A stretch of DNA of 64,000 nucleotides from Dehalococcoidia bacterium. Lineage in GTDB: Bacteria; Chloroflexota; Dehalococcoidia; Lucifugimonadales; CAUZJF01. The stretch covers positions 212,069 to 276,068 of the forward strand of contig CBDAOG010000008.1 in the NCBI GenBank assembly GCA_965197985.1. Direction: 5' to 3'. This document shows positions 31,330-56,101 of this stretch, in pieces. Position 1 is the stretch's first letter. Every line of letters begins with the position of its first letter. Under the pieces are notes generated by a model. It had not been told where the DNA came from. It did no database searches and saw nothing but the letters and a program-made list of their open reading frames with translations. The position numbers and the translations under genes are program-made.

Positions 31330-31331
31330 GG

Positions 31332-32760: not shown

Positions 32761-32764
32761 CGGC

Positions 32765-33800: not shown

Positions 33801-34283
33801 AAGCGCTGGCTGGGGGCGACTGCATTGACGACGCCGACGCGTTGCGTACCGGCGGGACAGTTGGCGCCCTGGGCGGCACTGTCAAGGCGCCATCCACCTT
33901 GGGAACCTTCCTGCGCAGCTTCCGGTGGGGCCACGTCCGCCAACTGGACCGGGTGAGCCGGGAGCTGCTGGCACGGGCCTGGGCTGCCGGGGCCGGACCC
34001 GGCGACGCGCCGTTGACCATCGATCTGGACTCCACCATCTGCGAGACCTACGGACTGGCCAAGGAGGGTGCCCGCCACCACAGCTATGCCGGCCAGCGGG
34101 GCTATCACCCGCTGCTGGCCATCTCCGCCGAAACCGGCGACGTGCTGATGTCCCGGCTGCGCGAGGGCTGCGCCAACACCGTTCGGGGCGGCGCCCATTT
34201 CCTGCGTGAGACGGTGGGGCGGGTGCGCCATGCTGGGGCCAGGGGGCAACTCACTGTGCGGGCCGACAGCGGCTTCTATGCCC
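33793..34283 (+). pseudogene. Internal fragment of an IS1380-family transposase
   Basis: ALAGGDCIDDADALRTGGTVGALGGTVKAPSTLGTFLRSFRWGHVRQLDRVSREL...ADSGFYAH. Both ends are abrupt junctions. Confidence 0.8.
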
Positions 34284-36092: not shown

Positions 36093-36095
36093 TAG
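35007..36095 (+). CDS. IS630-family DDE transposase (362 aa)
   Basis: [23 protein letters not shown]... HTH. DDE region [15 protein letters not shown] ... ILDNYATHK ... WLNQVERWF. The stop TAG is completed by the duplicated TA plus the target G. Confidence 0.9.
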
Positions 36096-36234
36096 AAGCC
36101 AGTGAACATATGCCAGCCGAGGACAGCACGACTGATGTAGACGCCTAGCCGGCAGATCCGCCGCAGTAGAGTCCCAGGAAGTGGTGTAAGAGGGAGAGGG
36201 TCTGGAGAAAGAGAGACCACCGCGTCATCCTTAG

Positions 36235-37946: not shown

Positions 37947-37986
37947 TTAGCGGGCAAAGAAGAAAGCTCGAGAAAGGAGGACAACA

Positions 37987-38205
37987 GTGGCCAAGGAAAG
38001 GATGGACCTGCTGGAGCTATTGCGCAAGGGGGGAATGGACGGTGACGTGGACTTCCTACGGGAGGCACTGAGAGTGGTGGTAGAGGGGATCATGGATGCG
38101 GAGGTGTCATCGAGGATCGGTGCTGAGTATGGAGAACGCAGCCCTGAGCGGGTGACCCAGCGCAACGGGTATCGGTCCCGGGCGTGGGATACCCGGTGCC
38201 TCCGC
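37987..38205 (+). pseudogene. N-terminal fragment of an IS256-family (mutator-type) transposase
   Basis: DLLELLRKG...DFLREALRVVVEGIMDAEVSSRIGAEYGERSPERVTQRNGYRSRAWDTR is the canonical IS256 N-terminal block. Homology stops after WDTR. Confidence 0.7.
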
Positions 38206-38368
38206 CGGACTCGAAGTGGCTCCAAAATGAAGGTGCGTCGTTTGTGCATTCAAGGTGAGAATAGGTAACGCCGGTGTAGCTCGGCACGTCCACAGGACGA
38301 CTTGTCGTAGTCACGGGTGCCCAGGAACCTGAGTGTGGTGATAATCATGTAGTTCGAGGTTCCTCACG

Positions 38369-40156
38369 TCAATTTGCCGCCGTCGTTGAACCAGGGCTGT
38401 CGATCTCGCCCGCCCACAACCGCTGCATCTCGGCGGATGTGGCGAGCAGGTTGTCAAGCGTCCCCTCGGCATCCACGCGACCGTCCTTGAGGACGACGAT
38501 ATGGTCGGCGCAACGGAGGGCCGCCCGCCGGTGGGAGACTGCAAAGACGGTGCTGTTCGGGCGGTCGGACAGCCGCTCCCATAGGGTCTGCTCGGTCTCG
38601 ACGTCGAGGCCGCTCGACAGATCGTCGAAGACCAGCAACTCCGGCTCTCGGACGAACATGCGCGCCGCGGCGGCCCTCCGTTGCTGTCCGCCGGAGAGTT
38701 TCACCCCGCGCGGCCCGACGACGGTGTGCAGCCCATTCTCAAGATCATCAATGTCGCGTTCCAGCACGGCGGAGCGGACGGCCCCGGGCAGGTCAGCTCT
38801 GTCCTCAGGAAGGCCCATTAGGATATTGCCCCGGAGTTCCTCACTGAACAGGCGAGGGACCTGGGACGTGTAGGCAACGCGAGGCGGCACCATAACCTCG
38901 CCCGCGTCTTCGATCGACCTCCCGTTCCACCGCAACTCGCCGGCCTGCAGCGGCAACGAACCCAACAGGACGCGCAACAGCGTGCTCTTGCCCGAACCGA
39001 CTCTTCCCGCTATGACAGTGAACGAACCCTTTCGCAGGGAGAGCCCGATGTCATGTACACCGCGCCCGGACTGCGGGTACACATAGGTCACACCGCGCGC
39101 CTCCAGGCTCTCGAGGCGGTCGGCTTCTGTCTTCGCTGCGGGTATTGGGTCGGTAGGTGCTCGGAACAGATGAATCGCGTTGCGCTCGACCAGCTTCTCA
39201 GGCGGGGACCCCGGCAATAGGTCACGGAGCCGTCCGATGCCGACACCGACCTGTCGATACGACACGACGAGTTGGCCGACGTCCATCACCAATGCCGAGA
39301 ACGCCCACAAGTAAAAGGTAAACAGCGCGAGGTCACCAACGGTGAACTCTCCACTGAGCATTGCGTGGCCGGAGACGATGAGAATCGCGCCGGTGCCGAT
39401 GTGCTGAACGTTCTGGAAAACCGCGTTCAATGACTGAGTCAGGAGTGTATCTCGCAGAGTTGCACGTTTGCGCGCCGTGTTCACGCGGTCGAACTCACCG
39501 AGGACGCTGACCTCGGCCCCGGCGACCTTGATCGCCTCGACGGAGCCGAACATCTCGCCGATGAAGCCTGTCACCTCCCCGGCAGCCTCACGGCTGCGCG
39601 TTCGTGCCCGTTCGATGCGGGCCTTGGCGGCGTTGACGACGACCAACACCACCAGTAGGGGAACGAATCCGACCAACGTTATGAAGGGAGATACCCGGAA
39701 CATGATGAAGATCGCGACGACGGCGAACACAACGTGGGTCGCTAGGAATTTGGCCTCTCCAACGAATCCGCCCACACTGGAAGCATCGTCACGGAACCTG
39801 GTCACGGCCTCGCCGGGTGATGCGGGAAGGCTCCGGTCACCGCGCAAGCCCATCAGATGAGCGAGGGCGTTCCTCTGCATGAGTGTGCCGATCATAAACT
39901 GATTGGCGGACTGCAGGGCGGACACCGCTACGTCGATCACGAGGCGAGCAGTCGAGATACCCACGAACATCGCACAGAGGGCCCATACGCTCAGCGAGGT
40001 CCGTGCGTTCCCTGTCAGGGTATCGAAGACCTCCCTCAGAATGAGGGCGTACGCCTGCTCGAACCCGACTATCACTGCGACTGATGCGAGGAAATCGAGC
40101 GTGAGCAACCACTTGAATGTCCACGAGAGAGAGGCGATGTATCGCCAGGTACTCAC
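38369..40156 (-). CDS. ABC exporter, fused permease + ATP-binding protein
   Basis: Six-TM-type N-terminal half. Walker [10 protein letters not shown], signature [14 protein letters not shown], Walker B LLVFDD. The GTG start overlaps the upstream fragment's stop (GTGA). Confidence 0.85.
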
Positions 40157-40320
40157 GCCAGGACCTCCTCGAGACCGGTCTGGAGGAGACGGTGGAACTG
40201 TGTGCTCGCGTCCGACGCCAACAGCTCCCGCTCACCGGACTCCACCACCCGGCCGTCTTCGAGGATCACTATGTCGTCGCATCGCTGAACGGTGGCGAGG
40301 TGGTGGGCGACGATCAGGAC
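40153..40320 (-). pseudogene. 3' end of the partner ABC exporter gene, 5'-truncated
   Basis: Minus-strand translation [54 protein letters not shown](stop). The homologous sequence starts abruptly near 40320. Confidence 0.7.
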
Positions 40321-40401
40321 AGTTCAAAAGTTCGTACCACTAGTGGTCCACCATCATTGAAATGAAGACCATGATAGTCATTGTTTCTCTTGGGGGGCAG
40401 G

Positions 40402-40737
40402 TCACATGTATAGCTCACTGAACCCTGGGTCTCCCGGCTCTGAGTAGTCTCGAGCCTTGGAGAACGGCTGACATGGAAACCCCGCGCAGAGGATGTCGTG
40501 GCTCGGGATAGTCTCAACTGCAACCTCGCGGATGTCTCCAAATGGTGTCACTCCGAAGTTCTCGTAGTAGGTCGCCCGCAGACTCTCGTCGATCTCGGAC
40601 GCGAAGACGCACCTGTGGCCGAGATTCTTGAGCGCAAGATGAAATCCACCAAGGCCGGCGAAGAGATCAATGAAACGCATCTGTGTCTGATCCGCTCCAT
40701 TCCTCAGGGAATCTGTGAGACTACCCTCGGACATCAT
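40402..40737 (-). pseudogene. N-terminal fragment of a DNA cytosine-5 methyltransferase
   Basis: Motif [13 protein letters not shown] and motif [10 protein letters not shown] are present. The ORF ends ~15 codons later and lacks motifs VI-X. Confidence 0.75.
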
Positions 40738-40930
40738 CACTCCTGCCACGCGTCGCTGTGTCGACGGCCATATCCTCCATCCAGCGGTCGATCCGCTCCT
40801 GTCTGAAACGCCAACGGCTTCCGACTTTAGAGGCGGGAATCTTTCCGCTTTGAGCAAGCCGATATATCAGGTCCTTGCTCAGCTGCAGGTACTCGGCGAC
40901 CTCTTGAAGGGTCATCCATCTGTTTTGCAT
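40721..40930 (-). CDS. Excisionase/MerR-type HTH (HTH_17-like) DNA-binding protein
   Basis: [46 protein letters not shown]. Confidence 0.7.
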
Positions 40931-41300
40931 GTGGCATCCATTGGGTCATATCCCTTCCTAGTCAATACTAATGGAGCATAGGCTCACATATAGCTGACGT
41001 CAAGACGAGCGACCACAGCAGACAGTGAGAGATTGCCTCTTGCGGAATGATCGCAGGACCTCAAGAAGCTACATCGAGACATATACGGGGTTCGAGCCAC
41101 GTGGGGGCCCAGGTCCTCGACGGAGCCACCGCCCAGGCCGACGTCGCGAGCTGAGCCGCCCTGGTCCACGGCGCGCCCAGGCCCGATCGACCGCTGCCTT
41201 CGCCCAAGGCGCGCCCTGGGCAGGTCCGCCGCAGAGTTGAACGCCTGGGGGGTACCGTGGCCCGGGCCACCGCTGCCTCCGCCCAGGTCGTGGTTGTGAT

Positions 41301-41330
41301 CTGTCCTGCCCTGCCCTGCCCTGCCCTGCC
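41301..41330. repeat. Pentanucleotide microsatellite (CTGYC)6 = (GGCAG)n on the minus strand; only 2 units in the right arm (53845..53854)
   Basis: ctgtc ctgcc ctgcc ctgcc ctgcc ctgcc versus ggcag ggcag in the right arm. This is a 20-nt length difference. Confidence 0.9.
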
Positions 41331-41719
41331 AGCACCGACCCGCTGATCTCGTACTGCATGGTGTAGTAGATATATACTTACCCAGAGGCAGAAATCCACC
41401 CATTAGATATTGCTTGCACCATTGCATGTTTGCATTTCTGGAGCTCTTCGACCGCCTATTCGCCTTTCGGCTAACCGCCTATTCCGTTCAACTGAGCGTG
41501 TCCAGCGATCTCCCTTCGATCGCCTTGATGCTCGGTATCATTGTGGTGGGTCTCGTCGTGGCCCGGGCCACGGTGCGCCTACACGATACCCCTACAAGGA
41601 GAGCTGCATGTCCAACCGCGACGGAATCCTAGACTCGCGGTGGTGTTTGCGGTACCTTCGAGAGCGTTGAAAAACCCGCGTGGTGGCCCGGGCCACATCC
41701 CCTGCAAAGGAGGGGCTAC

Positions 41720-41902
41720 ATGTCCAACCGCGACGGAATCCTAGACTCGCATCCTTCGGAGCGCGTCAAAATGCCGCCGGAGCTGGCGGCCTTCGACCGA
41801 TGGGACGCCGATCCGAACGACCTGGCGAAGTGGGAGGCGGCTATGGCGGCCTTGGCCCCGGCCGCCGGAGCCGACAATTCCAACGCCACCGTCAATCTCT
41901 AA
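41720..41902 (+). CDS. Small acidic hypothetical protein (60 aa), arm-borne
   Basis: Strong SD AAAGGAGGGG 5 nt before the ATG. MSNRDGILDSHPSERVKMPPELAAFDRWDADPNDLAKWEAAMAALAPAAGADNSNATVNL. The mirror copy 53272..53454 differs at 2 residues. Confidence 0.55.
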   Translation: MSNRDGILDSHPSERVKMPPELAAFDRWDADPNDLAKWEAAMAALAPAAGADNSNATVNL

Positions 41903-42544
41903 GCCAGCAAGTCGAAGCTCGTGTTCCAAGCGTAGGTAGGCCCTCCCCCGTCTCCACCACGAACACTAGCTGCCAAACGTTTTCGAGTGACCCTGGTCTG
42001 ACCCGGCCGCGCAACGCTGGATTGAGGCTGTGCTTAGACTTCCCAGCGGCAGCATGCTGCGTGCGTAATGCCGTCTGGCTCCGTAATGTAGTACACGGTA
42101 AGGATGCTTCCGTCGGCCAGCTGCGTCGACACGGGATATCCGAGGTCGCCTTCTGGCCTCGACCGTGTCTCCAGTGGAGGGTCCCCGTGCCGAACTCGTC
42201 GCGCCAGACCTCCAGGCGGCGGCGGAGCTTGTCGGGGGTGTCAAGCAGGCCGACGGCCTCGCCGAAGGTCAGGTGGTCGCCCCAGGAGACGCTCGCGATG
42301 TTTCGGCCGTGGCCCAGCGTCATCTTTGGAGATCTCCTGCTGCCTGGTCCATGACATCACCTGAAGCGCCATCCAATGAGACGCCCAGAAAGGGAGTCCT
42401 TTTGGTACGGCTGATATTACGGCTCGTGGTAGCTACGACGCAAGACGGCCCCCTTTTGGAGCATAGGCACTATAGCAGGTGCGGAACAGCAGGCTGGGGC
42501 GGTGCTTCGCTATGGCGGGTGGAACGGACAGGACCGAGCCGTAG

Positions 42545-44155
42545 CTATGAGAAGGCGGCCTCGAATACGCGCTCGGTACGTTCCTGTTGTTTCCGGTCAG
42601 GACCAGGCGTAAGAGATACGCCGGAGCCGGCACGGGTGGTTGCCAGATGGAAGACCGGCCTGAACGGAGCTTTGGGCTTGATGGCGACGACCGAACGGGC
42701 GTCTTTCGTGTCAACGTAAACGGCGTCCAGCATGGCAAGCAACAGCTTCCGACGCTCTTCCATGTTGGCACCAGCCCATAGCTCAGGCAGCCTCTCTATC
42801 AGCTTCCCCGCCTCTGCGGCAGCGGCAGCCTTTGGCACAACGAGGGACTCGAGCTCCATCTCCAGGTTCCGCTTCTGCCGCTTATACTCCTGGTCATCAT
42901 AAACTCCATCGACATAGGTCTTGGCGAGTCTCCGAAGCCTCTCCTGGACCTTTCGCCGCTTGGCTTGGACTACTTCGACCTCGTCCCTGGCGCTGATTAT
43001 CGAGAGGAGCTGCTCTTGCCATGCAGGTCCCAACTCGATGGCCTCGACGATCCTTCCGACCTGCTCATCAGCCAGGCGGCACGGTATCGAGCCATCGTGA
43101 GCTGGGCATTGGGTGTTACTGCGAGACTCCCTGTGCTCACGGTAGTACCTTCTTCCGCTTTTATAGGTCTGTGCCCACATCGGCATCTTGCAGTAGGCGC
43201 AACGGATGATCCCTTTCAGAAGATAGTCACGCTCAGGGTGAGGGCTCAGGGTCGTTGATCTGCCGCTGTTGTGCCGCATCTTGTCCTGGACCAGATCGAA
43301 GAGCTCCTGGCCGACGACTGGCTCGTGGGCTCCCGGTCGGAGTTGTTTCCTGTGCCTGACAAGACCCGAGTAGAAAGCGTTATGGAGGATGCCCCTCACT
43401 GAGGCAGTGGTAAATAGCTTCGGACCGGGCGAGAGCTTGCCATCAGCGCCTGCCAGCTGCTTGGTGTTGCGAGTCCGTAAGCCGCTCGCGTTCAGCCACG
43501 CGGCGAGCTGGCTTAGTGTGGTCGATCCCGTCGAGTACCGTTTGAACATCTCCTGGACCGCGGCAACCTCGGACGCAATAAGATGAACGCCCCCGGAATG
43601 CTCTTTTGGGCATCTGCGCCTGCGCTCTCCGTCCTGGCTCATCCAGCAGGATTCGTATCCAAACGGGATGCCGCCGGTGTGTCTGCCCTCATTGGCCCTC
43701 TCATCCAGACCCTTGCTTACGTGAGTGCCAAGCATGTTGGAGAAGAACTGGGCGAAGGACCCCAGAAGTTGAGTCGTCAACATCCCCTCAGGGGTCGAGT
43801 AGTCGATGTTCTCGGTGATGGAGACGAGAGCGACGTTGTGCATGCCCAGGTTGGCCAGCGACTCCAGGGTGACCCTGAGGTTGCGAGACCATCGGTCAAG
43901 GGTATGGACTACGACGATATCGAATTGATCCCTCCTGGCGTCCTCCATCAGTTGGCGGAAGATAGGGCGCTTCTTCACCGACTCTGAGTGGGCCGACTGG
44001 CCCTCTTCCCGATAGACCCTGACGGCCGCCCAGCCTCGGCTCTCACACAGCTGATTGAAGAGCCGCTCCTGGGCGTTCAGAGAGTGCCCGTCCACCTGTG
44101 AGATAGACGATACCCTGAGGTAGGCCACAGCTCTCTGGGAGTTCGCGTCGCTCAT
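42545..44155 (-). CDS. Large serine recombinase (536 aa)
   Basis: Resolvase catalytic N-term AVAYLRVSSISQ. Recombinase domain. Zn-ribbon CAYCKMPMW...CPAHDGSIPC. C-terminal coiled coil. Confidence 0.9.
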   Translation of the reverse strand: MSDANSQRAVAYLRVSSISQVDGHSLNAQERLFNQLCESRGWAAVRVYREEGQSAHSESVKKRPIFRQLMEDARRDQFDIVVVHTLDRWSRNLRVTLESLANLGMHNVALVSITENIDYSTPEGMLTTQLLGSFAQFFSNMLGTHVSKGLDERANEGRHTGGIPFGYESCWMSQDGERRRRCPKEHSGGVHLIASEVAAVQEMFKRYSTGSTTLSQLAAWLNASGLRTRNTKQLAGADGKLSPGPKLFTTASVRGILHNAFYSGLVRHRKQLRPGAHEPVVGQELFDLVQDKMRHNSGRSTTLSPHPERDYLLKGIIRCAYCKMPMWAQTYKSGRRYYREHRESRSNTQCPAHDGSIPCRLADEQVGRIVEAIELGPAWQEQLLSIISARDEVEVVQAKRRKVQERLRRLAKTYVDGVYDDQEYKRQKRNLEMELESLVVPKAAAAAEAGKLIERLPELWAGANMEERRKLLLAMLDAVYVDTKDARSVVAIKPKAPFRPVFHLATTRAGSGVSLTPGPDRKQQERTERVFEAAFS

Positions 44156-44286
44156 TCTTCGTCCTCGTCGTTCGGCCTGCGGGCTGCAACGGCCATGGCC
44201 GCATTGGCAAGTGTCTCAAGGAAGTTATCGATCATGATGGGGTCTGTCTCACCGTATCTGGCAGCACCCGGCTTTGTGGCGGTACA

Positions 44287-44308
44287 GTGTATACGGGAAC
44301 GTATACAC
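44287..44308. promoter_or_regulatory. Perfect 9-bp inverted repeat (GTGTATACG n4 CGTATACAC) overlapping a TTGACG/TACACT promoter-like pair upstream of the recombinase gene
   Basis: Read directly; the mirror copy is at 50866..50887. It lies ~130 nt upstream of the recombinase ATG. Confidence 0.4.
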
Positions 44309-44364
44309 GTCAACCCGTTTTGAGGCACGTTTAGTGGATGTACAAGCGTTCCCAAGGCAGCCAC

Positions 44365-44740
44365 CTAGCCAGCCGGCTCTTGTGCGTCGATCAGGCGTTT
44401 GAGCGTTGCATAGCCGATACCCAGTTCAAACGCCGCCTTACGTCTCGATAGTTCTCCCGAGCTTAGGCGCTCCAAAATAGCTCCAAAACGACGATCGAAG
44501 CCTCGCCGGTCCGTTACCCTGGGACGCCCTATCCGCTTGCCCTGTCGGCGAGCCCTGTCCATCCCCGCCTTCACACGCTCGCGGATCAGCTCCAGCTCGA
44601 ACTCTGCCAGAGAGCCCAGGATGTTCAACATCAGCCGGCCTACGGCGGTGGTGGTCTCGAAGTTCTCCCTCATGCTCTGGAAGCCTACGCCTACCATCTC
44701 CCAGGCTGACAACGTGTCGTGCATGTGCTTGACGGACCTG
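44365..44740 (-). pseudogene. Small serine recombinase (resolvase/invertase) 3' fragment
   Basis: FQSMRENFETTTAVGRLMLNILGSLAEFELELIRERVKAGMDRARRQGKRIGRP plus a C-terminal HTH. The catalytic N-terminal half is absent; it is cut at 44740. Confidence 0.8.
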
Positions 44741-44771
44741 TGACGTCTCTTCCAGGTTGGAGAGCTTCTTT

Positions 44772-44843
44772 GATTCCCTCGTAAAAACCCGTTTTGAGGA
44801 AGTTCCAGCGATTTAGCACATCTGCGCGCTACCGTATGTTGGT
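44772..44843 (+). mobile_element. Partial copy (left ~72 bp) of the 161-bp MITE
   Basis: gattccctcgtaaaaacccgttttgaggaagttccagcgatttagcacatctgcgcgctaccgtatgttgg matches the left half of the copy at 48011. Confidence 0.8.
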
Positions 44844-44944
44844 GTCAAGGGCGGTGTGAAAACGTACCAGCGGGGCGGAGCAAAACTGTACCACTGAACG
44901 CCGTAGAATGGGCATCAAGGTTCGTGGGGCGTTGGAGATCAGGG

Positions 44945-45245
44945 TCAGTCAGATAGCTGGCGGCCAGAAGTCTTCTTGCTGTGCTTGAGTCGGTAGCTGT
45001 CCCCGTTCATCTCCAGGATGTCGACATGGTGGGTGAGGCGGTCGAGGAGAGCTCCGGTCAGCCGTTCAGAGCCGAACACCTCGGTCCACTCGACGAAGGG
45101 CTCACTTGGAGGTCACCAGGACCGATCCACGCTCGTAACGCTGGCTGAACACCTCGAAGAGCAGCTCGGCGCCAGTCTTGGACAAGGGCACGAAGCCCAG
45201 TTCGTCGATGATCAGAAGATTGAATCCAACGTTGGGCCGCATGCC
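44945..45245 (-). pseudogene. IS21-family IstB helper ATPase 3' fragment (frameshifted)
   Basis: LLIIDELGFVPLSKTGAELLFEVFSQRYERGSVLVTS, then a frameshift, then EPFVEWTEVFGSERLTGALLDRLTHHVDILEMNGDSYRLKHSKK. Confidence 0.75.
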
Positions 45246-46460
45246 GGACAGGGTGGAACCGGTGATGTGGATTGCCGAGGGCATGACGTCGCAGCCGTAC
45301 AGGACCTCCTCCATCATCACGGGATGCAGCGATGTGGAATCGCCACCGGCGCGCTCGTGGCGGGAAGCAACCTGCTCGTACACGGCCGACAACAGGGCGC
45401 CGGTGCCGCAGGCGAAATCTCCGATGCGCAGCCTGCTTATGGCCTCGGCGTCGGACCAGTCCACAGAATCCATATTGGCCACGGCCAGACGCGCCAAAAG
45501 CGCAGCCGACGCGGGCAGGGTGTAGAAGGTGGCCAGATACTTCCGGTCGGCGATCAGCCGTTGGAAGATGCGTCCGGTCAGGTCGTGGGCGTTGTCGACG
45601 CCGGTGGCTTCAACTTCCTGGGCGGTCTCCAGCAACTCCCGTAAGACGCTAGTGGCAACGTCTCCGGGAAGCTGCTCCAAGATGTCTTTGGCGATGGCAA
45701 AGATGGGCCAGTAGTTGATCTTCAGGATGTCTTCCCAGGCCGCCAGCGCCTCACTCTGGGGACTTGCAACGTTGGGGCCGCACACCAAGCGCAGGGTTCT
45801 CACCTCCTGGTGCATCCCCGCGATGCGCTGGTGAAAGACCATAGCGTTGGCGATGATGGCACAGGCCATGCGACGGGTCTGGGGAACGTCGCTCATTCCC
45901 AGCAACCGGGCAATAACAGGGGTGACATTGGGGCGCAGCGTCGCCATTTCCTCCAAACGGGTGGCGGCCTGCCCAATGCCTTGCGAAAGCGTGTAAGCTG
46001 CCTGCTCCACTGCTTTATGTGGGACGGACACCAAGCGGGCTATGTCAGCCAGATCGCTCACTGAGCCGCCCAGCCATCCCGATTCGGGAAATCGGCTGCC
46101 GTCCTGATGAAGGACGCAGTAGGTTAGGCGTGTCTCGACTAGAGCCAAGCGCAGGTCATAGGCGTCTTCCACAGTCTTGGGATAACGCAGGGCTATGGCA
46201 GCCTCGACGGTGCGCGGAGCACCTTTCACGCGAAGCCCCAGCCGTTCGGAGGCATCCTTCTCCGCTTCGACAGCCGGCTCATACTCAGCCTCGACGACCA
46301 CCGGGGAGCGGCCCGGCGCGACGATCAGCACATCGGCATGGCGGCCCGGATGGTCGATGAAGGTCTGGGTGTTCTCAGAGCGGACTTCACAGTCCGGCAT
46401 CATGCCTCGTAGGATGTCGCCCAGTGCGTTGTTCGCGTTCGGTTCTGTCTGTCGCGGCAT
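45246..46460 (-). pseudogene. N-terminal part of a type IIG-like restriction-modification enzyme (PD-(D/E)xK-like N-term + N6-adenine MTase motif I), truncated by the IS21 fragment
   Basis: HADVLIVAPGRSPVVVEAEYEPA (nuclease-like). IGDFACGTGALLSAV (motif I). The ORF runs directly into IstB sequence before any NPPY/DPPY motif. Confidence 0.6.
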
Positions 46461-46500
46461 TCTACCTCGCTAACCCACTTACTCCTACCGGATGGAAGAC

Positions 46501-48466
46501 TCACAACCCCACTTGACCGGCAAGGTCTTTAATACGACTGCGGAGGGTGTTACCCCGCTCCTCAATGAACTTCTCGAAGTCGCCTGGTGTAAACGGGTTT
46601 TTCATGAGGATGTCAAAGGCGCGGGCTGAGATGAAGTGCGACTCCAGTATCCTCATCACCTCATCTTTCCCATTGGTGGCGATAAGTTCCGGCAGGTACT
46701 CGTTGGGAAGACGATCCCTGATGACCTTGCGGTTGGTTTCGCTGGTTAGGGGTGTCCGGTTGAGTATCGTGTCAATAGAGGTGCTCAGCGCGTATTGGCT
46801 CCCAAGGCTCTTCGGCACGATGTGATGGTCATCAAGGTCGCCGTGCTGAGGAGCGTTACCAGATATCCAGTCGCGAGCACCGTTGAGGACCAACAGGTTA
46901 AATACGCCGTTGTAGACAGACGTTCCTCGCCGCGTCTCACGCCTGAGATCGAGATTGTCAATGTCTCTTTGGAACTCGGAAATCGACCCGGGTTCGGCGT
47001 TGTCGTCTACATACCAAGTCTTGATTTCCCTGTAATCTTGAGCGGCTGTGGATTCAACTGCTCCTGAATAGCGGTTGGTGAAGACGCTGGCCCAATACCA
47101 GAGACGTATCTTTCGCTGAGCATCGAGCCTCTGTTCGGCGGGAAGCTGACCGGCTTCGACCTGCAAGGCAGCGAAGGATGGCAGAATAGCTGCGTAGGGC
47201 AAGTATTGAGAAGATATTGCGCCAAATTTCCTGCGGGTGGCGCAGTAGATTGAGCGCCCGTTCTAGTGCCTCGACCGCTTCATGCCAGAGATTCTTGAAT
47301 TCGATAGGGTCAGCAACAAGCACCTCCGACCGGAGTGTGCCGTCCGGCCCACGCACCTGCCTTGAGCTACCAGGAATCAGGTTGTATAGATACTTCGGGG
47401 AACAGTAAGCCTGGCGAAGTATGGACATCACCTGAAGCACATACACGTTCATCCGCCCTGCCTCGGCAAACTCCAGACGAGGAGATGCATCTCTCCACAA
47501 GTCCTGCCTGAGTCGAATTTCCTTCGGCCTTAAGAGGGCGTTGAGGAGGTCGAAGATATCGAGTCTAACGCCCCGGCTGTTGATCTTTGTGAAGATATCG
47601 CAGACCTTGTCGAGTTCAAGGTCTCGATCCAACTCAATATACGAGATCTGGTACTGTTCCGTAATATCTTTCAAGTGCTCGCCAAACTTCTTGGCGTTCT
47701 CCGCCTGGAACGCGGCAGACTCGGCCTCAGTTCCTTCGAGTGTCTCCGCCGCTTCACGCCAGTGTTTCTCATAACCCTGTACCCAGTTAGGTAGTTCCCA
47801 GCCCCCTGCCCCGACTACGGAGAGCGGGAACATGTGTTCCTTGAACTGGCGCGTCCGATCACTCAGCAGATTCAGCCCCCTGCGAGTCCAGTCGTATATG
47901 AAGGCGTCATCGTATGCCTCATCCATGAAGCGATCGACCTTGATGAAGTAGAGGAATCGATTGCGACGGTTGGGTGCGGGCTTGTTGGGTGCCATGAACG
48001 AGTAATACATGATTCCCTCGTAAAAAACCGGTTTGAGGAAGTTCCAGCGATGTAGCACATGTGAGCGCTACCGTATGTTGGGGTAGGACACGGAACAGAG
48101 ACTGTATATTGTACCCAGGCAAGGGTACGGTTGTTCTAATTCGACCTGCACAGACTTTTTACGAGGGAATCAATACATGGCCGTGAGACGCTGCTGACCG
48201 TCCAAGACGATATCGGTTCGGCCATCACCACCCTCAAAGCCGTAGATCGCCTCACAGGAGAGTGCCTCAAAGTTTTCGTCTTTGCCCTTCCAAAGAAGAA
48301 GGCTACCGATGTAGTAGTCGCGGAAGATGGAACTCATTAGCTCTTTGATGTCCCACGGCTCCCATTCAAAGTCACGCTGGAAATCGGGGATCACGTACCG
48401 CCCCTCGCGCAAACGTCCGACCATGTTGGCGAGACTCACGTGGTCGGGTTTTTGTGAGTCCTTCAT
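46501..48466 (-). pseudogene. GmrSD-like type IV restriction enzyme (DUF262 + DUF1524), disrupted by a MITE and a 1-nt frameshift
   Basis: The DUF262 N-term contains DGQQRLTAMY and is then interrupted by the MITE at 48011..48171. It continues as YSFMAPNK.... A frameshift lies near 47228 (RHPQE / FGAISSQYLPY). DUF1524 motif DLDDHHIVPKS...NRTPLTSETNRK. Confidence 0.8.
48011..48171 (+). mobile_element. 161-bp MITE, complete copy, 7-bp TSD AATACAT
   Basis: TIRs are GATTCCCTCGTAAAAA / TTTTTACGAGGGAATC. AATACAT lies at 48004-10 and 48172-78. Confidence 0.85.
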
Positions 48467-48879
48467 GACGACTTACCTCCAGGATTCTCCACCAAGATTG
48501 CTCCCTGCATCCTGGCAAGTCTGCGGTCAAAGGTGTAGAGGGGCGTCGCTCCCACCCGTTCGGCCGCTGTAAGGATCATCAAGTCCGAAAACCCGGCGCC
48601 TCCTTGCCGATAGCGATGTGCAGCTGCGGCGACGTCAACAGAATTCTCGACGACGAGACTGTCTGAAGCTGTTAGGTCCATCAATGCCTCCGCGACTCGG
48701 GTTCGTGTGAAGCGGTAGCTCCGTTCCAGTACCCAGGCGACCTCTACGACGACCTCACGGCAAATGAATCCTGGATTACCGGGCGTCAGCCCGTCCAGCA
48801 ACGCGCGAGACGCCTCGGCGTGTTCAGCGTGGTCGCCCACCAAGTAGCGTACGATCACATTTGTGTCGAGCGCGGTCAT
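48463..48879 (-). CDS. vapC: PIN-domain toxin VapC
   Basis: MTALDTNVIVRYL...FSDLMILTAAERVGATPLYTFD shows PIN acidic residues. 4-nt overlap with the antitoxin gene. Confidence 0.85.
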   Translation of the reverse strand: MTALDTNVIVRYLVGDHAEHAEASRALLDGLTPGNPGFICREVVVEVAWVLERSYRFTRTRVAEALMDLTASDSLVVENSVDVAAAAHRYRQGGAGFSDLMILTAAERVGATPLYTFDRRLARMQGAILVENPGGKSS

Positions 48880-49109
48880 TCTTCGATTGCCGCCTCTGCG
48901 ATGGCACGGTCCATGTCTTCCAAGCTCACCGGCGGGCCGTCGTACTTGAGGCTACCGAACAGTCGGCTGGTGGACCGCACAGGCATTATCAGCACCCCCT
49001 CGTCCAGAATGACATAGCGGACCCTATCCCCTGCCTTCACTGCCAGCGAATCCCTGACGGCTTTGGGCAATGTGGTCTGGCCCTTCACGGTTATGCTGGA
49101 TTCAAACAT
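48876..49109 (-). CDS. vapB: AbrB/MazE/SpoVT-type antitoxin (VapB-like)
   Basis: ITVKGQTTLPKAVRDSLAVKAGDRVRYVI is a swapped-hairpin AbrB-type motif. Confidence 0.8.
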   Translation of the reverse strand: MFESSITVKGQTTLPKAVRDSLAVKAGDRVRYVILDEGVLIMPVRSTSRLFGSLKYDGPPVSLEDMDRAIAEAAIEE

Positions 49110-49555
49110 TGAAAATGCTCCTTTACCTCAAAGAGTGGCCATTGGCCTTACATTATGGCGGTCGGTAATGCCTTTGGCAATAGTGCTAGCTTGTTTTGGT
49201 TTGAGTAGGCCGTTTCTGAGTCATGGCGATCCATCCACCCAATACCACCCCCCTCCCCCCCATGCATTCGTCATTGTCTACGGGCTTTTGACCGAGCCCT
49301 CTGGCACGCGTGGTTGAGCGGCTTGTGTCGTTTGGGAAGTGGAGTGATAAAGCGAAGGCAGCGAGGGATCGGCACGTCCTGAGGAGGGTCGCGTCGCTGG
49401 GAATGCACTCGGGACCACCTCTCCTGTGCCAGAGGCTTGGCTGCACGAACGAATGGCCCCTGCTCTAGAGAACAGGGGCCTCGTTTCCATGGGATGGGAA
49501 GCTGGCCCAGCCTACAGGTTCAAGGTGAGCGTCAATGTGAAAGTTCTTGATTTTG

Positions 49556-50008
49556 TCAAGCGTGGTGGACCGACCTTCCCTCTTCCAAAAGCCTTATCAC
49601 ACTGGGCCAACTAAGCCTGGAGCGCGACTTATGGTACCAGCGGTAAGCCTCGCCTTCCCAGCGGTTGTCGTAGTCGTGACCGGTGCGTCCCGCCGACCCC
49701 ACATTCGCAACAATCAGAACCTCGGCCTGATGCTCCACAATACCTGATTCTCTCGTAAAAAGTCTGTGTAGGTCGAATTAGAACAAACGTACCCACACCT
49801 GGGTACAATATACAGTCTCTGTTCCGTACACTACCCCAACATACGGTAGCGCGCAGATGTGCTAAATCGCTGGAACTTCCTCAAACCGGGTTTTTACGAG
49901 GGAATCAATACCTGTGTCCCAATTTCCACCCTTTGCATCGCGGGGCAGTCCGGCTGGTTCCTTCACATCCGCCCTCGTGTACTTGTCGCCTGCTTCGAAA
50001 GTTGACAT
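49556..50008 (-). pseudogene. Small (~94 aa) hypothetical gene split by a MITE
   Basis: MSTFEAGDKYTRADVKEPAGLPRDAKGGNWDTGI | MITE | VEHQAEVLIVANVGSAGRTGHDYDNRWEGEAYRWYHKSRSRLSWPSVIRLLEEGRSVHHA. The frame is continuous once the MITE plus one TSD is removed. Confidence 0.55.
49746..49906 (-). mobile_element. 161-bp MITE, complete copy (inverted orientation), 7-bp TSD AATACCT
   Basis: AATACCT lies at 49739-45 and 49907-13. The TIRs are as in the other copies. Confidence 0.85.
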
Positions 50009-50204
50009 GTTCGATCGTCATCATTCGTCAGGTAACGGGATTGGCACGGAACAACAACCTGGCCCATGTGATGGACGCGGGCTCCTTCCAATCTTTGCCG
50101 GCTCTACAGATCGGAGGTTGTTTCAGCCAGGTCCATCTCCCGGATGGCGTTGCCGCTTTTGGGCGATTCGCATAGCTATACCTTGACGTCGCTCGGGGCA
50201 ACGG

Positions 50205-50809
50205 ATGATGGGCGCGGCGTCAAATGGGAAAGAACCTAAGGAAAGAGTCAATCAGGCGCTATAGAGATCCGCTCAATCGGTTTTCGCGCCGGCTATACCA
50301 ATCCAGAAACCTTGGGAGCTCGAGGCTATCCCGCCAACGACCTGGTGCATCGGACGGCATGGCGCGAACTACTCGACGACGCGGCCAAGAAGAGGTTCAA
50401 GACCGTCGTGGTGTTCAAGTTGGACCGGGCGTTCAGGTCCGTCAAGCACATGCACGACACGTTGTCAGCCTGGGAGATGGTAGGCGTAGGCTTCCAGAGC
50501 ATGAGGGAGAACTTCGAGACCACCACCGCCGCAGGCCGGCTGATGTTGAACATCCTGGGCTCTCTGGCAGAGTTCGAGTTGGAGCTGATCCGCGAGCGTG
50601 TGAAGGCGGGGATGGACAGGGCTCGCCGACAGGGCAAGCGAATAGGGCGTCCCAGGGTAACGGACCGGCGAGGCTTCGATCGTCGTTTTGGAGCTATTTT
50701 GGAGCGCCTAAGCTCGGGAGAACTATCGAGACGTAAGGCGGCGTTTGAACTGGGTATCGGCTATGCAACGCTCAAACGCCTGATCGACGCACAAGAGTCG
50801 GCTGGCTAG
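50205..50809 (+). pseudogene. Small serine recombinase (resolvase/invertase) with degenerate/frameshifted catalytic N-terminus
   Basis: From 50240 the frame reads ...FKTVVVFKLDRAFRS...ENFETTTAAGRLMLNILGSLAEFELELIRERV...GRP plus an HTH. No in-frame ATG/GTG lies before TTG 50312. No Y-x-R-V-S-T-x-x-Q block is seen; a possible remnant (MMGAASNGKEPKERVNQ) is in another frame. Confidence 0.7.
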
Positions 50810-50865
50810 GTGGCTGCCTTGGAAACGCCTGTACATCCACAAAACGTGCCTCAAAACGGGTTGAC

Positions 50866-50887
50866 GTGTATACGTTCCCGTATACAC
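50866..50887. promoter_or_regulatory. Mirror copy of the 9-bp inverted repeat/promoter-like element upstream of the recombinase gene
   Basis: TTGACG(50861-66) tGTGTATACGttccCGTATACACt. Confidence 0.4.
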
Positions 50888-51018
50888 TGTACCGCCACAA
50901 ATCCGGGTGCTGCCAAATACGGTGAGACAGACCCCATCATGATCGATAACTTCCTTGAGACACTTGCCAATGTGGCCATGGCCGTTGCAGCCCGCAGGCC
51001 GAACGACGAGGACGAAGA

Positions 51019-52629
51019 ATGAGCGACGCGAACTCCCAGAGAGCTGTGGCCTACCTCAGGGTATCGTCTATCTCACAGGTGGACGGGCACTCTCTGAACG
51101 CCCAGGAGCGGCTCTTCAATCAGCTGTGTGAGAGCCGAGGCTGGGCGGCCGTCAGGGTCTATCGGGAAGAGGGCCAGTCGGCCCACTCAGAGTCGGTGAA
51201 GAAGCGCCCTATCTTCCGCCAACTGATGGAGGACGCCAGGAGGGATCAATTCGATATCGTCGTAGTCCATACCCTTGACCGATGGTCTCGCAACCTCAGG
51301 GTCACCCTGGAGTCGCTGGCCAACCTGGGCATGCACAACGTCGCTCTCGTCTCCATCACCGAGAACATCGACTACTCGACCCCTGAGGGGATGTTGACGA
51401 CTCAACTTCTGGGGTCCTTCGCCCAGTTCTTCTCCAACATGCTTGGCACTCACGTAAGCAAGGGTCTGGATGAGAGGGCCAATGAGGGCAGACACACCGG
51501 CGGCATCCCGTTTGGATACGAATCCTGCTGGATGAGCCAGGACGGAGAGCGCAGGCGCAGATGCCCAAAAGAGCATTCCGGGGGCGTTCATCTTATTGCG
51601 TCCGAGGTTGCCGCGGTCCAGGAGATGTTCAAACGGTACTCGACGGGATCGACCACACTAAGCCAGCTCGCCGCGTGGCTGAACGCGAGCGGCTTACGGA
51701 CTCGCAACACCAAGCAGCTGGCAGGCGCTGATGGCAAGCTCTCGCCCGGTCCGAAGCTATTTACCACTGCCTCAGTGAGGGGCATCCTCCATAACGCTTT
51801 CTACTCGGGTCTTGTCAGGCACAGGAAACAACTCCGACCGGGAGCCCACGAGCCAGTCGTCGGCCAGGAGCTCTTCGATCTGGTCCAGGACAAGATGCGG
51901 CACAACAGCGGCAGATCAACGACCCTGAGCCCTCACCCTGAGCGTGACTATCTTCTGAAAGGGATCATCCGTTGCGCCTACTGCAAGATGCCGATGTGGG
52001 CACAGACCTATAAAAGCGGAAGAAGGTACTACCGTGAGCACAGGGAGTCTCGCAGTAACACCCAATGCCCAGCTCACGATGGCTCGATACCGTGCCGCCT
52101 GGCTGATGAGCAGGTCGGAAGGATCGTCGAGGCCATCGAGTTGGGACCTGCATGGCAAGAGCAGCTCCTCTCGATAATCAGCGCCAGGGACGAGGTCGAA
52201 GTAGTCCAAGCCAAGCGGCGAAAGGTCCAGGAGAGGCTTCGGAGACTCGCCAAGACCTATGTCGATGGAGTTTATGATGACCAGGAGTATAAGCGGCAGA
52301 AGCGGAACCTGGAGATGGAGCTCGAGTCCCTCGTTGTGCCAAAGGCTGCCGCTGCCGCAGAGGCGGGGAAGCTGATAGAGAGGCTGCCTGAGCTATGGGC
52401 TGGAGCCAACATGGAAGAGCGTCGGAAGCTGTTGCTTGCCATGCTGGACGCCGTTTACGTTGACACGAAAGACGCCCGTTCGGTCGTCGCCATCAAGCCC
52501 AAAGCTCCGTTCAGGCCGGTCTTCCATCTGGCAACCACACGTGCCGGCTCCGGCGTATCTCTTACGCCTGGTCCTGACCGGAAACAACAGGAACGTACCG
52601 AGCGCGTGTTCGAGGCCGCCTTCTCATAG
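51019..52629 (+). CDS. Large serine recombinase (536 aa), identical in protein sequence to 42545..44155
   Basis: The protein string is the same as the left-arm copy. Only two nucleotide differences were noticed, both synonymous (ACC/ACA Thr, GGT/GGA Gly). Confidence 0.9.
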   Translation: MSDANSQRAVAYLRVSSISQVDGHSLNAQERLFNQLCESRGWAAVRVYREEGQSAHSESVKKRPIFRQLMEDARRDQFDIVVVHTLDRWSRNLRVTLESLANLGMHNVALVSITENIDYSTPEGMLTTQLLGSFAQFFSNMLGTHVSKGLDERANEGRHTGGIPFGYESCWMSQDGERRRRCPKEHSGGVHLIASEVAAVQEMFKRYSTGSTTLSQLAAWLNASGLRTRNTKQLAGADGKLSPGPKLFTTASVRGILHNAFYSGLVRHRKQLRPGAHEPVVGQELFDLVQDKMRHNSGRSTTLSPHPERDYLLKGIIRCAYCKMPMWAQTYKSGRRYYREHRESRSNTQCPAHDGSIPCRLADEQVGRIVEAIELGPAWQEQLLSIISARDEVEVVQAKRRKVQERLRRLAKTYVDGVYDDQEYKRQKRNLEMELESLVVPKAAAAAEAGKLIERLPELWAGANMEERRKLLLAMLDAVYVDTKDARSVVAIKPKAPFRPVFHLATTRAGSGVSLTPGPDRKQQERTERVFEAAFS

Positions 52630-53271
52630 CTGCGGCTCGGTCCTGTCCGTTCCACCCGCCATAGCGAAGCACCGCCCCAGCCTGCTGTTCCGCACCTGCT
52701 ATAGTACCTATGCTCCAAAAGGGGGCCGTCTTGCGTCGTAGCTACCACGAGCCGTAATATCAGCCGTACCAAAAGGACTCCCTTTCTGGGCGTCTCATTG
52801 GATGGCGCTTCAGGTGATGTCATGGACCAGGCAGCAGGAGATCTCCAAAGATGACGCTGGGCCACGGCCGAAACATCGCGAGCGTCTCCTGGGGCGACCA
52901 CCTGACCTTCGGCGAGGCCGTCGGCCTGCTTGACACCCCCGACAAGCTCCGCCGCCGCCTGGAGGTCTGGCGCGACGAGTTCGGCACGGGGACCCTCCAC
53001 TGGAGACACGGTCGAGGCCAGAAGGCGACCTCGGATATCCCGTGTCGACGCAGCTGGCCGACGGAAGCATCCTTACCGTGTACTACATTACGGAGCCAGA
53101 CGGCATTACGCACGCAGCATGCTGCCGCTGGGAAGTCTAAGCACAGCCTCGATCCAGCGTTGCGCGGCCGGGTCAGACCAGGGTCACTCGAAAACGTTTG
53201 GCAGCTAGTGTTCGTGGTGGAGACGGGGGAGGGCCTACCTACACTTGGAACACGAGCTTCGACTTGCTGGC

Positions 53272-53454
53272 TTAGAGATTGACGGTGGCGTTGGAATTGT
53301 CGGCTCCGGCGGCCGGGGCCAAGGCCGCCATAGCCGCCTCCCACTTCGCCAGGTTGTTCGGATCGGCGTCCCATCGGTCGAAGGCCGCCAGCTCCGGCGG
53401 CATTTTGACGCGCTCCGAAGGATGCGAGTCTAGGATTTCGTCGCGGTTGGACAT
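53272..53454 (-). CDS. Small acidic hypothetical protein (60 aa), right-arm copy
   Basis: MSNRDEILDSHPSERVKMPPELAAFDRWDADPNNLAKWEAAMAALAPAAGADNSNATVNL. Same SD as the left-arm copy. Confidence 0.55.
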   Translation of the reverse strand: MSNRDEILDSHPSERVKMPPELAAFDRWDADPNNLAKWEAAMAALAPAAGADNSNATVNL

Positions 53455-53877
53455 GTAGCCCCTCCTTTGCAGGGGATGTGGCCCGGGCCACCACGCGGGT
53501 TTTTCAACGCTCTCGAAGGTACCGCAAACACCACCGCGAGTCTAGGATTCCGTCGCGGTTGGACATGCAACTCTCCTTGTAGGGGTATCGTGTAGGCGCA
53601 CCGTGGCCCGGGCCACGACGAGACCCACCACAATGATACCGAGCATCAAGGCGATCGAAGGGAGATCGCTGGACACGCTCAGTTGAACGGAATAGGCGGT
53701 TAGCCGAAAGGCGAATAGGCGGTCGAAGAGCTCCAGAAATGCAAACATGCAATGGTGCAAGCAATATGTAATGGGTGGATTTCTGCCTCTGGGGTGAGTA
53801 TATATCTACTACACCATGCAGTACGAGATCAGCGGGTCGGTGCTGGCAGGGCAGATCACAACCACGACCTGGGCGGG

Positions 53878-54446
53878 GGCTCCATCGAGGACCTGGGCCT
53901 GGTCCAGGGTGATCGGTGGGGCCGGCCGCGGCATCGGTGGGGCTGGCCAGTTCGCGTCGTGGACCAGGGCGGCTCAGCTCAGGACCTCGACCTGGGCGGA
54001 GGCAGCGGTGGCCCGGGCCCACGGTACCCCCCAGGCGTTCAACTCTGCGGTGGACCTGCCCAGGGCGCGCCTTGGGCGAAGGCAGCGGTCGATCGGGCCT
54101 GGGCGCGCCGTGGACCAGGGCGGCTCAGCTCGCGACGTCGGCCTGGGCGGTGGCTCCGTCGAGGACCTGGGCCTGGTCCAGGGCGATCGATGGGGCTGGC
54201 CGCGGCATCGGCGGAGCTGGCCAGCTCGCGTCGTGGACCAGGGCGGCTCAGCTCGCGGCATTCGCCTGGGCGGAGGCAGCGGTGGCCCGGGCCACGGTAC
54301 CCCCCCAGGCGTTCAACTCTGCGGCGGACCTGCCCAGGGCGCGCCTTGGGCGAAGGCAGCGGTCGATCGGGCCTGGGCGCGCCGTGGACCAGGGCGGCTC
54401 AGCTCGCGACGTCGGCCTGGGCGGTGGCTCCGTCGAGGACCTGGGC
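53878..54446. repeat. GC-rich tandem repeat, period 274 bp (sub-units ~123 + ~151 bp), about 2.1 units; left arm has only ~0.7 unit (41108..41295)
   Basis: The marker gtggaccagggcggctcagctc occurs at 53959, 54110, 54233 and 54384 (spacings 151/123/151). The units contain the palindrome GTGGCCCGGGCCAC. Confidence 0.85.
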
Positions 54447-54707
54447 ATGAACGCCTCCACTCTGGAGCGCATTCGCTTTGCTGCTGCCAACAGGCTGTGT
54501 GTCGACGTGGGTTACGAGGGGGACGTGCAAAGGGTGGAGCCATACTCACTGCGCAAGGCTCGCGGCGGCAATGTTGTGCTATATGCCTGCGAGGCCAGCT
54601 CCTCCGAATGTGCTACCTATCGAACTGGCGGCATTTCGGAGGTTGAGGTCACAAGGCAGACGTTCGTTCCGAAGTACGCCAACGAGCTGCTGTCGCCGGG
54701 CCGCTAG
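54436..54707 (+). pseudogene. Duplicated 3' end (WYL-like extension) of abiEii, no N-terminal toxin domain
   Basis: DLGMNASTLERIRFAAANRLCVDVGYEGDVQRVEPYSLRKARGGNVVLYACEASSSECATYRTGGISEVEVTRQTFVPKYANELLSPGR is near-identical to the C-terminus of 24111..25289. Confidence 0.85.
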
Positions 54708-55006
54708 GGTTGAACGGTCCGGTCAGCCAAATAAACTAGTGGTGCGAAATCTTTGAAATGAGGGACAGCCTGGATTGGTGAGAGCTCACGGCACCGGTGA
54801 GCCCCTTCCCCCGTCAAGGGGGAAGGTTGGGATGGGGGTGTCGAACAGCATTCGCGCTACCATTCATTGCTAGGATGTTGGGCCACTAGCCTGGAGAGCA
54901 TGGCCCCATGGCGTCGCCCAGACAGTGGCGTGATAGACTACAGCCCCATCCACATCTCGAAGATGGTTCTGCCTACCGTCAACTTAGGCCCACCAAACTG
55001 GACTCC

Positions 55007-56100: not shown

Positions 56101-56101
56101 T

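Follow-up and report, generated by a model that had tools for sequence, protein, structure and literature searches.

Inverted large serine recombinase modules in a Dehalococcoidia genome resemble the integrase ends of ssrA-specific genomic islands

Genomic islands of Dehalococcoides integrate at the tmRNA gene (ssrA) and accumulate in tandem, each integration duplicating 20 bp of the 3' end of the gene as a direct repeat (McMurdie et al. 2011, PMC3146451). The serine-recombinase crossover lies about 20 nt from the ssrA 3' end, and the integration module next to attL comprises DsiB (a 540-aa serine recombinase and CcrB homolog), the 200-aa DsiA, a RecF-like protein, ParB and Mom (PMC3146451). 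Strains of Dehalococcoides reportedly have no duplicate islands, and the islands form one tandem array within about 100 kb downstream of a single-copy ssrA (PMC3146451). Here we describe a 64,000-nt stretch of contig CBDAOG010000008.1 from a Dehalococcoidia bacterium (hereafter the window; ~60% G+C), in which two near-identical inverted arms, each with an intact large serine recombinase (LSR) gene, enclose 5.7 kb of DNA. Because the published direct-repeat primer sequence occurs exactly in both arms, each arm is probably the integrase-proximal (attL-side) end of a decayed ssrA-specific genomic island of the Dehalococcoides type, the two ends having been kept alike by gene conversion.

A comparison can also be made with CcrA and CcrB of SCCmec. 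In both cases, two co-oriented serine recombinases would insert and remove an island at a single-copy, essential gene. The LSR is matched by the CcrB model of NCBIfam at E = 1e-31, but with 110 bits against a cut-off of 900 bits. In contrast to SCCmec, the partner here is a 200-aa resolvase-type protein and not a second large recombinase, and the candidate target is ssrA, not orfX/rlmH.

The integration module and its ssrA repeat

A repeat search placed the core of the arms at 41381-44740 and 50434-53793, an inverted repeat of 3360 nt with 99% complementarity and 5693 nt between its halves, and base-by-base comparison counted 21 mismatches. This repeat is far beyond chance. The original prediction, made from the sequence of the window, had proposed near-identical inverted arms, each with a large serine recombinase and, at its inner end, a resolvase-like pseudogene; all of this is borne out, since both LSR open reading frames (ORFs) are intact and both small recombinase genes are truncated. 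From the centre outward, the arms contain the following features, each left copy followed by its right counterpart.

44365..44740, minus strand: left truncated small serine recombinase (DsiA-like), residues ~77-203 only, catalytic N-terminus missing
50339..50809, plus strand: right truncated small serine recombinase (DsiA-like), residues ~45-203, catalytic Ser10 region missing
44156..44364, minus strand: left 213-bp spacer, a nominal 70-codon ORF, with a promoter-like site and a 9-bp palindrome
50810..51018, plus strand: right 213-bp spacer, with TTGACG-16-TACACT overlapping the palindrome
42545..44155, minus strand: left LSR, 536 aa, DsiB-like, intact (Pfam PF00239 + PF07508 + PF13408; phrog_95 integrase, E = 1e-95)
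51019..52629, plus strand: right LSR, 536 aa, DsiB-like, intact, protein identical to the left copy
42395..42544, minus strand: left 150-bp conserved tail 3' of the LSR gene, up to the sharp module boundary J1 (...CCGTACCAAAAGGACT; alignment, motif search)
52630..52779, plus strand: right 150-bp conserved tail, up to J1
41967..42394, minus strand: left 428-bp variable segment (gene remnant), separating J1 from the ssrA repeat
52780..53207, plus strand: right 428-bp variable segment (gene remnant); a 60-bp segment occupies this position in a related metagenome-assembled genome (MAG)
41937..41966, plus strand: ssrA (tmRNA) 3' end in the left arm, the remnant of a direct repeat, reading towards the LSR gene
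53208..53237, minus strand: ssrA (tmRNA) 3' end in the right arm with a further 7 nt, convergent with the LSR gene

The sequence TGGTGGAGACGGGGGAGGG is present without change in both arms, at 53215 (plus strand) and 41941 (minus strand), and matches primer REC_001eR, designed on the ssrA direct repeat (PMC3146451), at 19/19 positions; the second primer of that study, REC_003eF, had no match in the window. The 30-bp arm copies align to the 3' end of the tmRNA gene in a related locus (L009). This gene is complete (ARAGORN, tag ANEAVPVAA; Rfam RF00023, 155 bits) and is separated by 48 nt from the stop codon of a 63%-identical LSR encoded on the other strand. In Rfam itself, the 30-bp fragment is too short for a score. 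Besides both window arms, 10 of the 12 loci with close copies of the module (L001-L008, L011 and L014) have GTGTTCG-TGGTGGAGACGGGGGAGGG-CC.. or a near match 3' of the LSR gene. The distance from J1 to the first such copy is 67-3100 bp, and the two remaining loci, L012 and L013, which are short, showed no copy. Locus L010, whose LSR is a 56%-identical relative, contains at 1378-1532 the same ssrA 3' fragment followed by a complete tRNA-Pro(cgg) gene, an arrangement that suggests island accretion or a target switch in that lineage.

Both 536-aa ORFs carry the Pfam domains Resolvase, Recombinase and Zn_ribbon_recom, with an RVSS motif from residue 14 (Ser16), LDRWSR from residue 86 and Cys-rich motifs from residues 319 and 350. 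The catalytic domain with its active-site Ser, the recombinase domain and the zinc ribbon that characterize serine integrases are thus all present. The best matches among solved structures are the TP901-1 and A118 integrases, and the CcrB and XisF models match at E ~1e-32, below their cut-offs. No DUF4368 domain was matched in the Pfam search, the identity of tblastn matches to the LSR in phages and plasmids did not exceed 27%, and an exact-protein look-up found neither the LSR nor the VapC toxin of the window on record. The translations of the two LSR genes are identical, and three synonymous substitutions, in codons 462, 507 and 530, distinguish the genes. Identical proteins and synonymous differences had been predicted correctly, but the count of two nucleotide differences was one too low.

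Homologs of the LSR come from Chloroflexota, and one of them, with 99% identity, is the representative of 262 sequences clustered at 90% identity. When species-representative genomes were scanned, at least six full copies and one partial copy of the LSR with 98-99% protein identity were found in the Dehalococcoidia MAG CBDEFX01, three of them in the same orientation within ~103 kb and two others as a convergent pair ~26 kb apart; three additional copies came from another sample. An all-against-all comparison of the loci revealed a block with 96-100% identity among all copies, which begins in the interior of the small recombinase gene and extends 150 bp beyond the stop codon of the LSR gene. 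In L008, L012 and L014, the small recombinase is intact (203-205 aa) and lies directly upstream of the LSR gene on the same strand; in the window, the right fragment of this gene extends inward to ~50339, past the repeat boundary. A Mom-like gene (PF25680, phrog_1384) is located two genes upstream in L007 and L008, and a Mom homolog also lies upstream of the 63%-identical LSR in L009; the window arms end before this position. Neither a RecF-like nor a ParB gene was detected between dsiA and mom, where a single coiled-coil ORF of 327 aa, without a match to a Pfam or PHROG family, is present in L007, and ARAGORN found no tRNA in L007 or L008 that could correspond to a tRNA-like element in mom. 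The tail 3' of the ssrA repeat is the same in L003, L005 and L014 as in the window arms.

Over 10 copies of the LSR gene, the proportions of synonymous and nonsynonymous differences were pS = 0.039 and pN = 0.0064 (pN/pS = 0.16), with no stop codons. For the nominal 70-codon ORF of the spacer, pN/pS was 0.86, and this ORF is therefore probably non-coding. The longest stretch without any difference between the arms is 1431 bp and includes most of the LSR gene (P = 1.75e-4 when the 21 differences are placed at random). At the flank divergence of 1.1%, about four synonymous differences would be expected in this tract even under purifying selection, and the probability of observing none is ~0.02. 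In the LSR gene, the arms differ at 3 sites from each other versus 12-31 sites from other copies; in the spacer they differ at exactly 6 sites (at least 6 had been predicted), versus 4-10 from copies in other genomes. Several of the differences between the arms are alleles common to other copies. Since a tract of 1431 bp without differences is so improbable (P ~2e-4), gene conversion between the arms appears to have taken place, and the comparisons together indicate that the LSR gene is likely functional and has been homogenised in this way, in agreement with the earlier proposal of purifying selection or gene conversion acting on a functional recombinase.

Within the spacer, a promoter-like site, TTGACG-16-TACACT (50861-50888, mirrored in the left arm), overlaps a perfect 9-bp palindrome, GTGTATACG-N4-CGTATACAC. 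The palindrome is unchanged between the arms, though no other part of the module varies as much as the spacer around it. The match of the promoter-like site upstream of the LSR gene is no better than chance for the region.

Extent of the arms and the DNA between them

Shorter matches extended the arm repeat to 41106 and 54446, and a search of the whole window gave two additional inverted matches, both at 99% identity (24079-24382 with 54436-54739, and 23972-24083 with 54885-54996). The right arm therefore reaches 54996. The outer 411 bp of the left arm are displaced to 23972-24382, 16.7 kb from the remainder of the arm at 41107, and an 11-bp direct duplication, GCCCAGGTCCT (24372-24382 and 41107-41117), borders the intervening block (24383-41106) on both sides. 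The arms had thus been recognised correctly in the original prediction, but their limits had been drawn too narrowly: the right arm is longer, and the left arm continues at 24382-23972. One additional 274-bp unit and a 145-bp insert (54740-54884) are found only in the right arm. The predicted gene remnants, small-ORF cluster and variable repeats were all found, the repeat unit being 274 bp. The outer features and the interrupting block are as follows.

23972..24382, minus strand: displaced outer piece of the left arm (inverted repeats 99%; 99% identical to L001 12998-13407)
23972-24083, within the displaced piece: MITE-like terminal repeat of the left arm (MITE, miniature inverted-repeat transposable element)
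24111-24371, within the displaced piece: left-arm copy of the 86-aa ORF
24383..41106, no strand assigned: 16.7-kb block interrupting the left arm, outside the repeat, with AbiEii/AbiEi, an ABC transporter and a C5-methylase fragment
41107..41936, minus strand: outer left arm, with one 274-bp repeat copy (41107-41320) and the small-ORF cluster
53238..54996, plus strand: outer right arm, with the small-ORF cluster, repeats, 86-aa ORF, insert and terminal repeat
53845-54449: 274-bp variable tandem repeat of the right arm, 2.2 copies
54447-54707: 86-aa ORF of the right arm
54740-54884: MITE-like 145-bp insert, right arm only
54885-54996: terminal 55-77-bp repeat of the right arm

The arms share the same 428-bp remnant and ~1.8 kb past the ssrA repeat, so that an origin as two clean, independent insertions is not supported. 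Of the two possibilities raised in the original prediction, an invertible segment or two recombinase-borne elements inserted head to head, the latter is nonetheless the nearer. No match to an arm was found among plasmids by megablast.

Several smaller repeats were observed in the outer arms. The 145-bp insert has copies at 84% identity twice in locus L006 and probably represents another MITE family. A family of 55-77-bp repeats (CTACAG..CATCTCGAAGATGGTTCTG..GGCCCACC) occurs at the outer end of both arms (23732-24030 and 54938-54996) and in L001 (6665-7043 and 13350-13432), and two of its copies at 23732-24030 form a strong hairpin (z = -6.9). We also considered this terminal repeat as a piece of a tRNA or tmRNA gene and rejected the idea, as it had no ARAGORN or Rfam match and behaves as a MITE-like hairpin. 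In the right arm at 53427-53570 (mirrored in the left arm), two small minus-strand ORFs start with the same 32-bp sequence, 112 bp apart, and the first of them encodes ~60 aa (MSNRDEILDS...).

Between the arms, the following features were identified, all on the minus strand.

44770..45240: truncated MITE of the 164-bp family (44770-44845) and a stub of the insertion sequence (IS) gene istB of IS21 type (~45102-45240), cutting off the left arm
47054..48466: GmrSD-like gene split by a 163-bp MITE (48010-48172), with GmrSD_N fragments in two ORFs
48463-48879: VapC (PIN) toxin, apparently intact
48876-49109: AbrB/PrlF-type antitoxin, apparently intact
49745..49908: copy of the 164-bp MITE

The centre (44741-50338) also holds two ORFs without a family match and ~430 bp of unassigned DNA. 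It had been described as a 5.7-kb cassette of decayed defence genes. Decay is evident in the split GmrSD-like gene and the IstB stub, but the toxin-antitoxin pair looks intact and the whole does not form a unit; the centre is a patchwork of IS and MITE debris plus one toxin-antitoxin pair, not a cassette. The inner end of the left arm is indeed cut at a MITE/IS21 junction, as predicted. The 164-bp MITE family has four full copies in the window (48010-48173, 49745-49908, 59993-60157 and 62521-62685) and one truncated copy (44770-44845); copies are also present in related genomes (L005, L011 and L012), and the family may derive from an IS21-type end.

The 16.7-kb block in the left arm contains three IS1380-like transposase genes and one IS630-like transposase gene. 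Its ends are not IS ends, and the AbiEii ORF (24111-25289, minus strand) reads across the junction into the 86-aa ORF of the arm.

Island ends, the J1 edge and alternative explanations

The likeness to the Dehalococcoides islands extends over several levels. A CcrB-like LSR of ~540 aa follows a small serine recombinase of ~200 aa on the same strand, opposite the 3' end of the LSR gene stands a short stretch of the ssrA 3' end in which the published 19-nt repeat occurs exactly, relatives have a Mom-like gene upstream, the host belongs to the class Dehalococcoidia, and a relative of the LSR is encoded beside a complete tmRNA gene. The differences are that a variable segment separates the module from the repeat, that both small recombinases of the window are truncated, and that defence and toxin-antitoxin genes lie nearby, whereas the Dehalococcoides cargo includes dehalogenases. 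The multi-copy state, the spacing before the repeat and the J1 edge are lineage-specific features of these modules.

Some observations weigh against the interpretation of the arms as ssrA island ends. No tmRNA gene, and indeed no tRNA or other RNA gene at the level of Rfam, was found in the 64-kb window. The dsiB ORF of Dehalococcoides overlaps the repeat, whereas the LSR gene here has its own stop codon (52629) and the repeat is 578 bp away (210 bp in the MAG). In contrast to the absence of duplicate islands in Dehalococcoides, the module here is highly multi-copy, near-identical and present in both orientations. The likeness to DsiB is drawn from the published description (PMC3146451). Finally, the razor-sharp J1 edge and the half-site-like flanks beyond it hint at a second recombination site outside the simple island model.

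The J1 edge deserves a fuller account. High identity stops at the same nucleotide (...GCCGTACCAAAAGGACT|) in 13 loci, against six different flanks, and the first 12 nt of these six flanks match the inverted J1 end at 40/72 positions, a value that none of 20,000 random trials reached (17.4 +/- 3.6). One possibility is that modules have been exchanged at J1 as a second recombination site; another is that J1 is a conserved protein-binding or hairpin motif at which homology for gene conversion ends. The segment from J1 to the ssrA repeat is 60 bp long in most copies of the MAG, 428 bp in both window arms, and ~540, 1280 and 3100 bp in other loci. In more distant relatives, too, the interval from the LSR gene to the ssrA end contains a palindrome, of a different sequence. 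As a hairpin terminator, J1 folds weakly in this lineage (z ~0.5) and well in L009 (z = -3.7). A search for a left-end partner of the J1 half-site gave nothing convincing. The sequence GCCG-ACCAAAAGGACTC at 24489-24505, inside the 3' part of abiEii and ~110 bp from the junction of arm and block, matches the conserved J1 end at 17/18 nt; it could be a chance match or a relic site, and no dyad was found in the flank beyond it.

These features raise the question of whether the ~2.6-kb block of small recombinase, spacer, LSR and 150-bp tail is itself mobile or self-replacing, recombining at J1 (core ...AAAAGGA-CT-...) with targets similar to its own end in inverted orientation, so that the two arms would represent two events or two module replacements in resident islands. 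The fixed 3' boundary, the match of the flanks to the inverted end, and the persistence of intact LSR copies in decayed surroundings all speak for such a unit, as does the variable 5' limit of high identity, which falls at codon 1, ~45, ~95 or ~120 of the small recombinase gene, in contrast to the constant 3' limit. This 5' limit is, on the other hand, not an element end, because the coiled-coil gene upstream is homologous but diverged among the copies; on the same ground, a 2.6-kb transposon whose left end would be the start codon of the resolvase gene was ruled out. With no partner for the left end, with an ssrA repeat 3' of every copy that has enough flank (so that the targets are not unrelated), with the same flank in both window arms (so that the events were not independent), and with a conserved palindrome at the end of homology, by which ordinary gene conversion would produce the same sharp edge, we consider an autonomous unit unlikely. 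Multi-targeting LSRs and LSR transposons such as Tn4451 (TnpX) and Tn5397 (TndX) (Durrant et al. 2022, PMC10083194) offer a comparison: here, too, one 90%-identity cluster meets several flanks, the recombinase gene stands at the end of the element and a degenerate dyad motif is found in the flanks. They differ in that the LSR here lacks DUF4368, which is typical of the multi-targeting clade (PMC10083194), its copies stay tied to the ssrA repeat, and neither a second element end nor a target duplication was found. J1 as the crossover site of such an integrase is accordingly weakened by the ssrA repeats 3' of the copies, with the dyad-like flanks still unexplained. A related and quite doubtful idea is that the dsiA-dsiB block up to J1 is a self-propagating integrase module that sweeps through resident ssrA islands by a site-specific crossover at J1 and a homologous crossover upstream. 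If true, it would explain the fixed 3' edge, the variable 5' edge and the intact, near-identical recombinases in decayed islands, and the inverted pair of the window would consist of two replaced modules between which sequence exchange continues.

Large serine integrases pair attP with attB, or attL with attR in the presence of a directionality factor, and do not pair two identical junction sites. This bears on a programmed invertible segment, in which inversion of 44741-50433 by the LSR, with crossover at sites in the arms, would switch the expression of genes in the centre. The geometry invites this view, with inverted arms and outward-facing, intact, identical recombinases, and the homogenised tract shows that the arms interact. 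The candidate sites in the arms (the ssrA repeat and J1) are, however, identical junction-type copies, and the LSR belongs to an integrase module of tmRNA-gene islands. There are no short crossover sites around the centre, only the multi-kb arms (3.4-4.6 kb) and MITE copies; the centre, with its IS and MITE debris, broken GmrSD-like gene and toxin-antitoxin pair, directs neither a promoter nor alternative gene ends towards the arms; and in relatives the module is single, in direct arrays, or in a convergent pair 26 kb apart. The serine-invertase switches Hin, Gin, Cin and Pin likewise combine a serine recombinase with DNA bounded by inverted repeats, but they use ~26-bp crossover sites and a ~190-aa invertase with an enhancer, and have a promoter or alternative gene ends inside the segment, whereas the repeats here are multi-kb copies of a recombinase locus and the enzyme is an integrase-type LSR. 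The invertible segment of the original prediction is therefore very improbable. Even less credible is an artefact in which one copy was duplicated or a fold-back chimera arose during long-read assembly. The source is probably a metagenome assembly, which would allow for such errors, but the arms differ by 21 substitutions, the repeat copy number, the 145-bp insert and the 16.7-kb interruption of one arm only, and are therefore no simple duplicate or fold-back; moreover, unlike in fold-backs, the 5.7 kb of DNA between them is asymmetric and unique, and their outer flanks are unrelated.

Under the preferred interpretation of the arms as decayed ssrA island ends, the following history may be proposed. 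The integration module occurs in many near-identical copies per genome. According to the literature, the DsiB/DsiA pair integrates islands of this type at ssrA, probably as CcrAB does for SCCmec, and the LSR of the window would act likewise. Both window arms would derive from one block of module, ssrA repeat and neighbouring tail that was brought into opposite orientations, and in an accretion model the DNA past the ssrA repeat (small ORFs, 274-bp repeats, 86-aa ORF and terminal repeat) would be the tail of an adjoining island. The inner parts of both copies would later have been lost through IS and MITE insertions and deletion, the left copy would additionally have been split by the 16.7-kb insertion, and the 5.7 kb between the arms would be trapped debris. 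Meanwhile, the LSR genes would have been kept intact by purifying selection and homogenised between the arms by gene conversion. Homologous recombination between the 3.4-kb arms (99.4% identity) could flip the centre, which would be a by-product and not a recombinase-driven switch; the local LSRs are not expected to invert it, because both DsiA copies are dead and only junction-type sites are present.

Neighbouring DNA and significance

Further mobile-element debris lies around the locus. Just outside the right arm, 55007-58241 on the minus strand holds the C-terminal part of a second, unrelated LSR (zinc ribbon), an HTH_7 protein and a prohead protease (S78) fusion, and looks like a separate prophage remnant. 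Two IS630-like (DDE_3) transposase genes at 35005-36095 and 61030-62120 are inverted, 100% identical and 25 kb apart, which indicates recent transposition; the pair brackets the whole region studied. A 366-bp inverted repeat (8245-8610 and 33439-33804, 94% identity) resembles in part (73-78%) the 5' region of the small recombinase in L001, and may be further recombinase-gene debris. At 1792-3020, tandem repeats of 627-630 bp with 84-88% identity lie inside a 912-aa ORF (1930-4668), which suggests a repetitive protein.

The locus is also a cautionary case, as a striking inverted recombinase pair can be the wreckage of island accretion and IS activity and not a switch. The parts worth pursuing are the J1 junctions and the intact, multi-copy integrase, and the set of junctions from the relatives (the edge of the ssrA repeat and the J1 edge) provides a basis for the design of att sites. 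Vinyl-chloride and other dehalogenase genes ride on the ssrA islands of Dehalococcoides, and the DsiB/DsiA integrase has never been studied biochemically. Together with its relatives, the locus described here places the same module in another Dehalococcoidia lineage, with a larger genome and ~60% G+C, where it is multi-copy, under selection and surrounded by defence and toxin-antitoxin genes.

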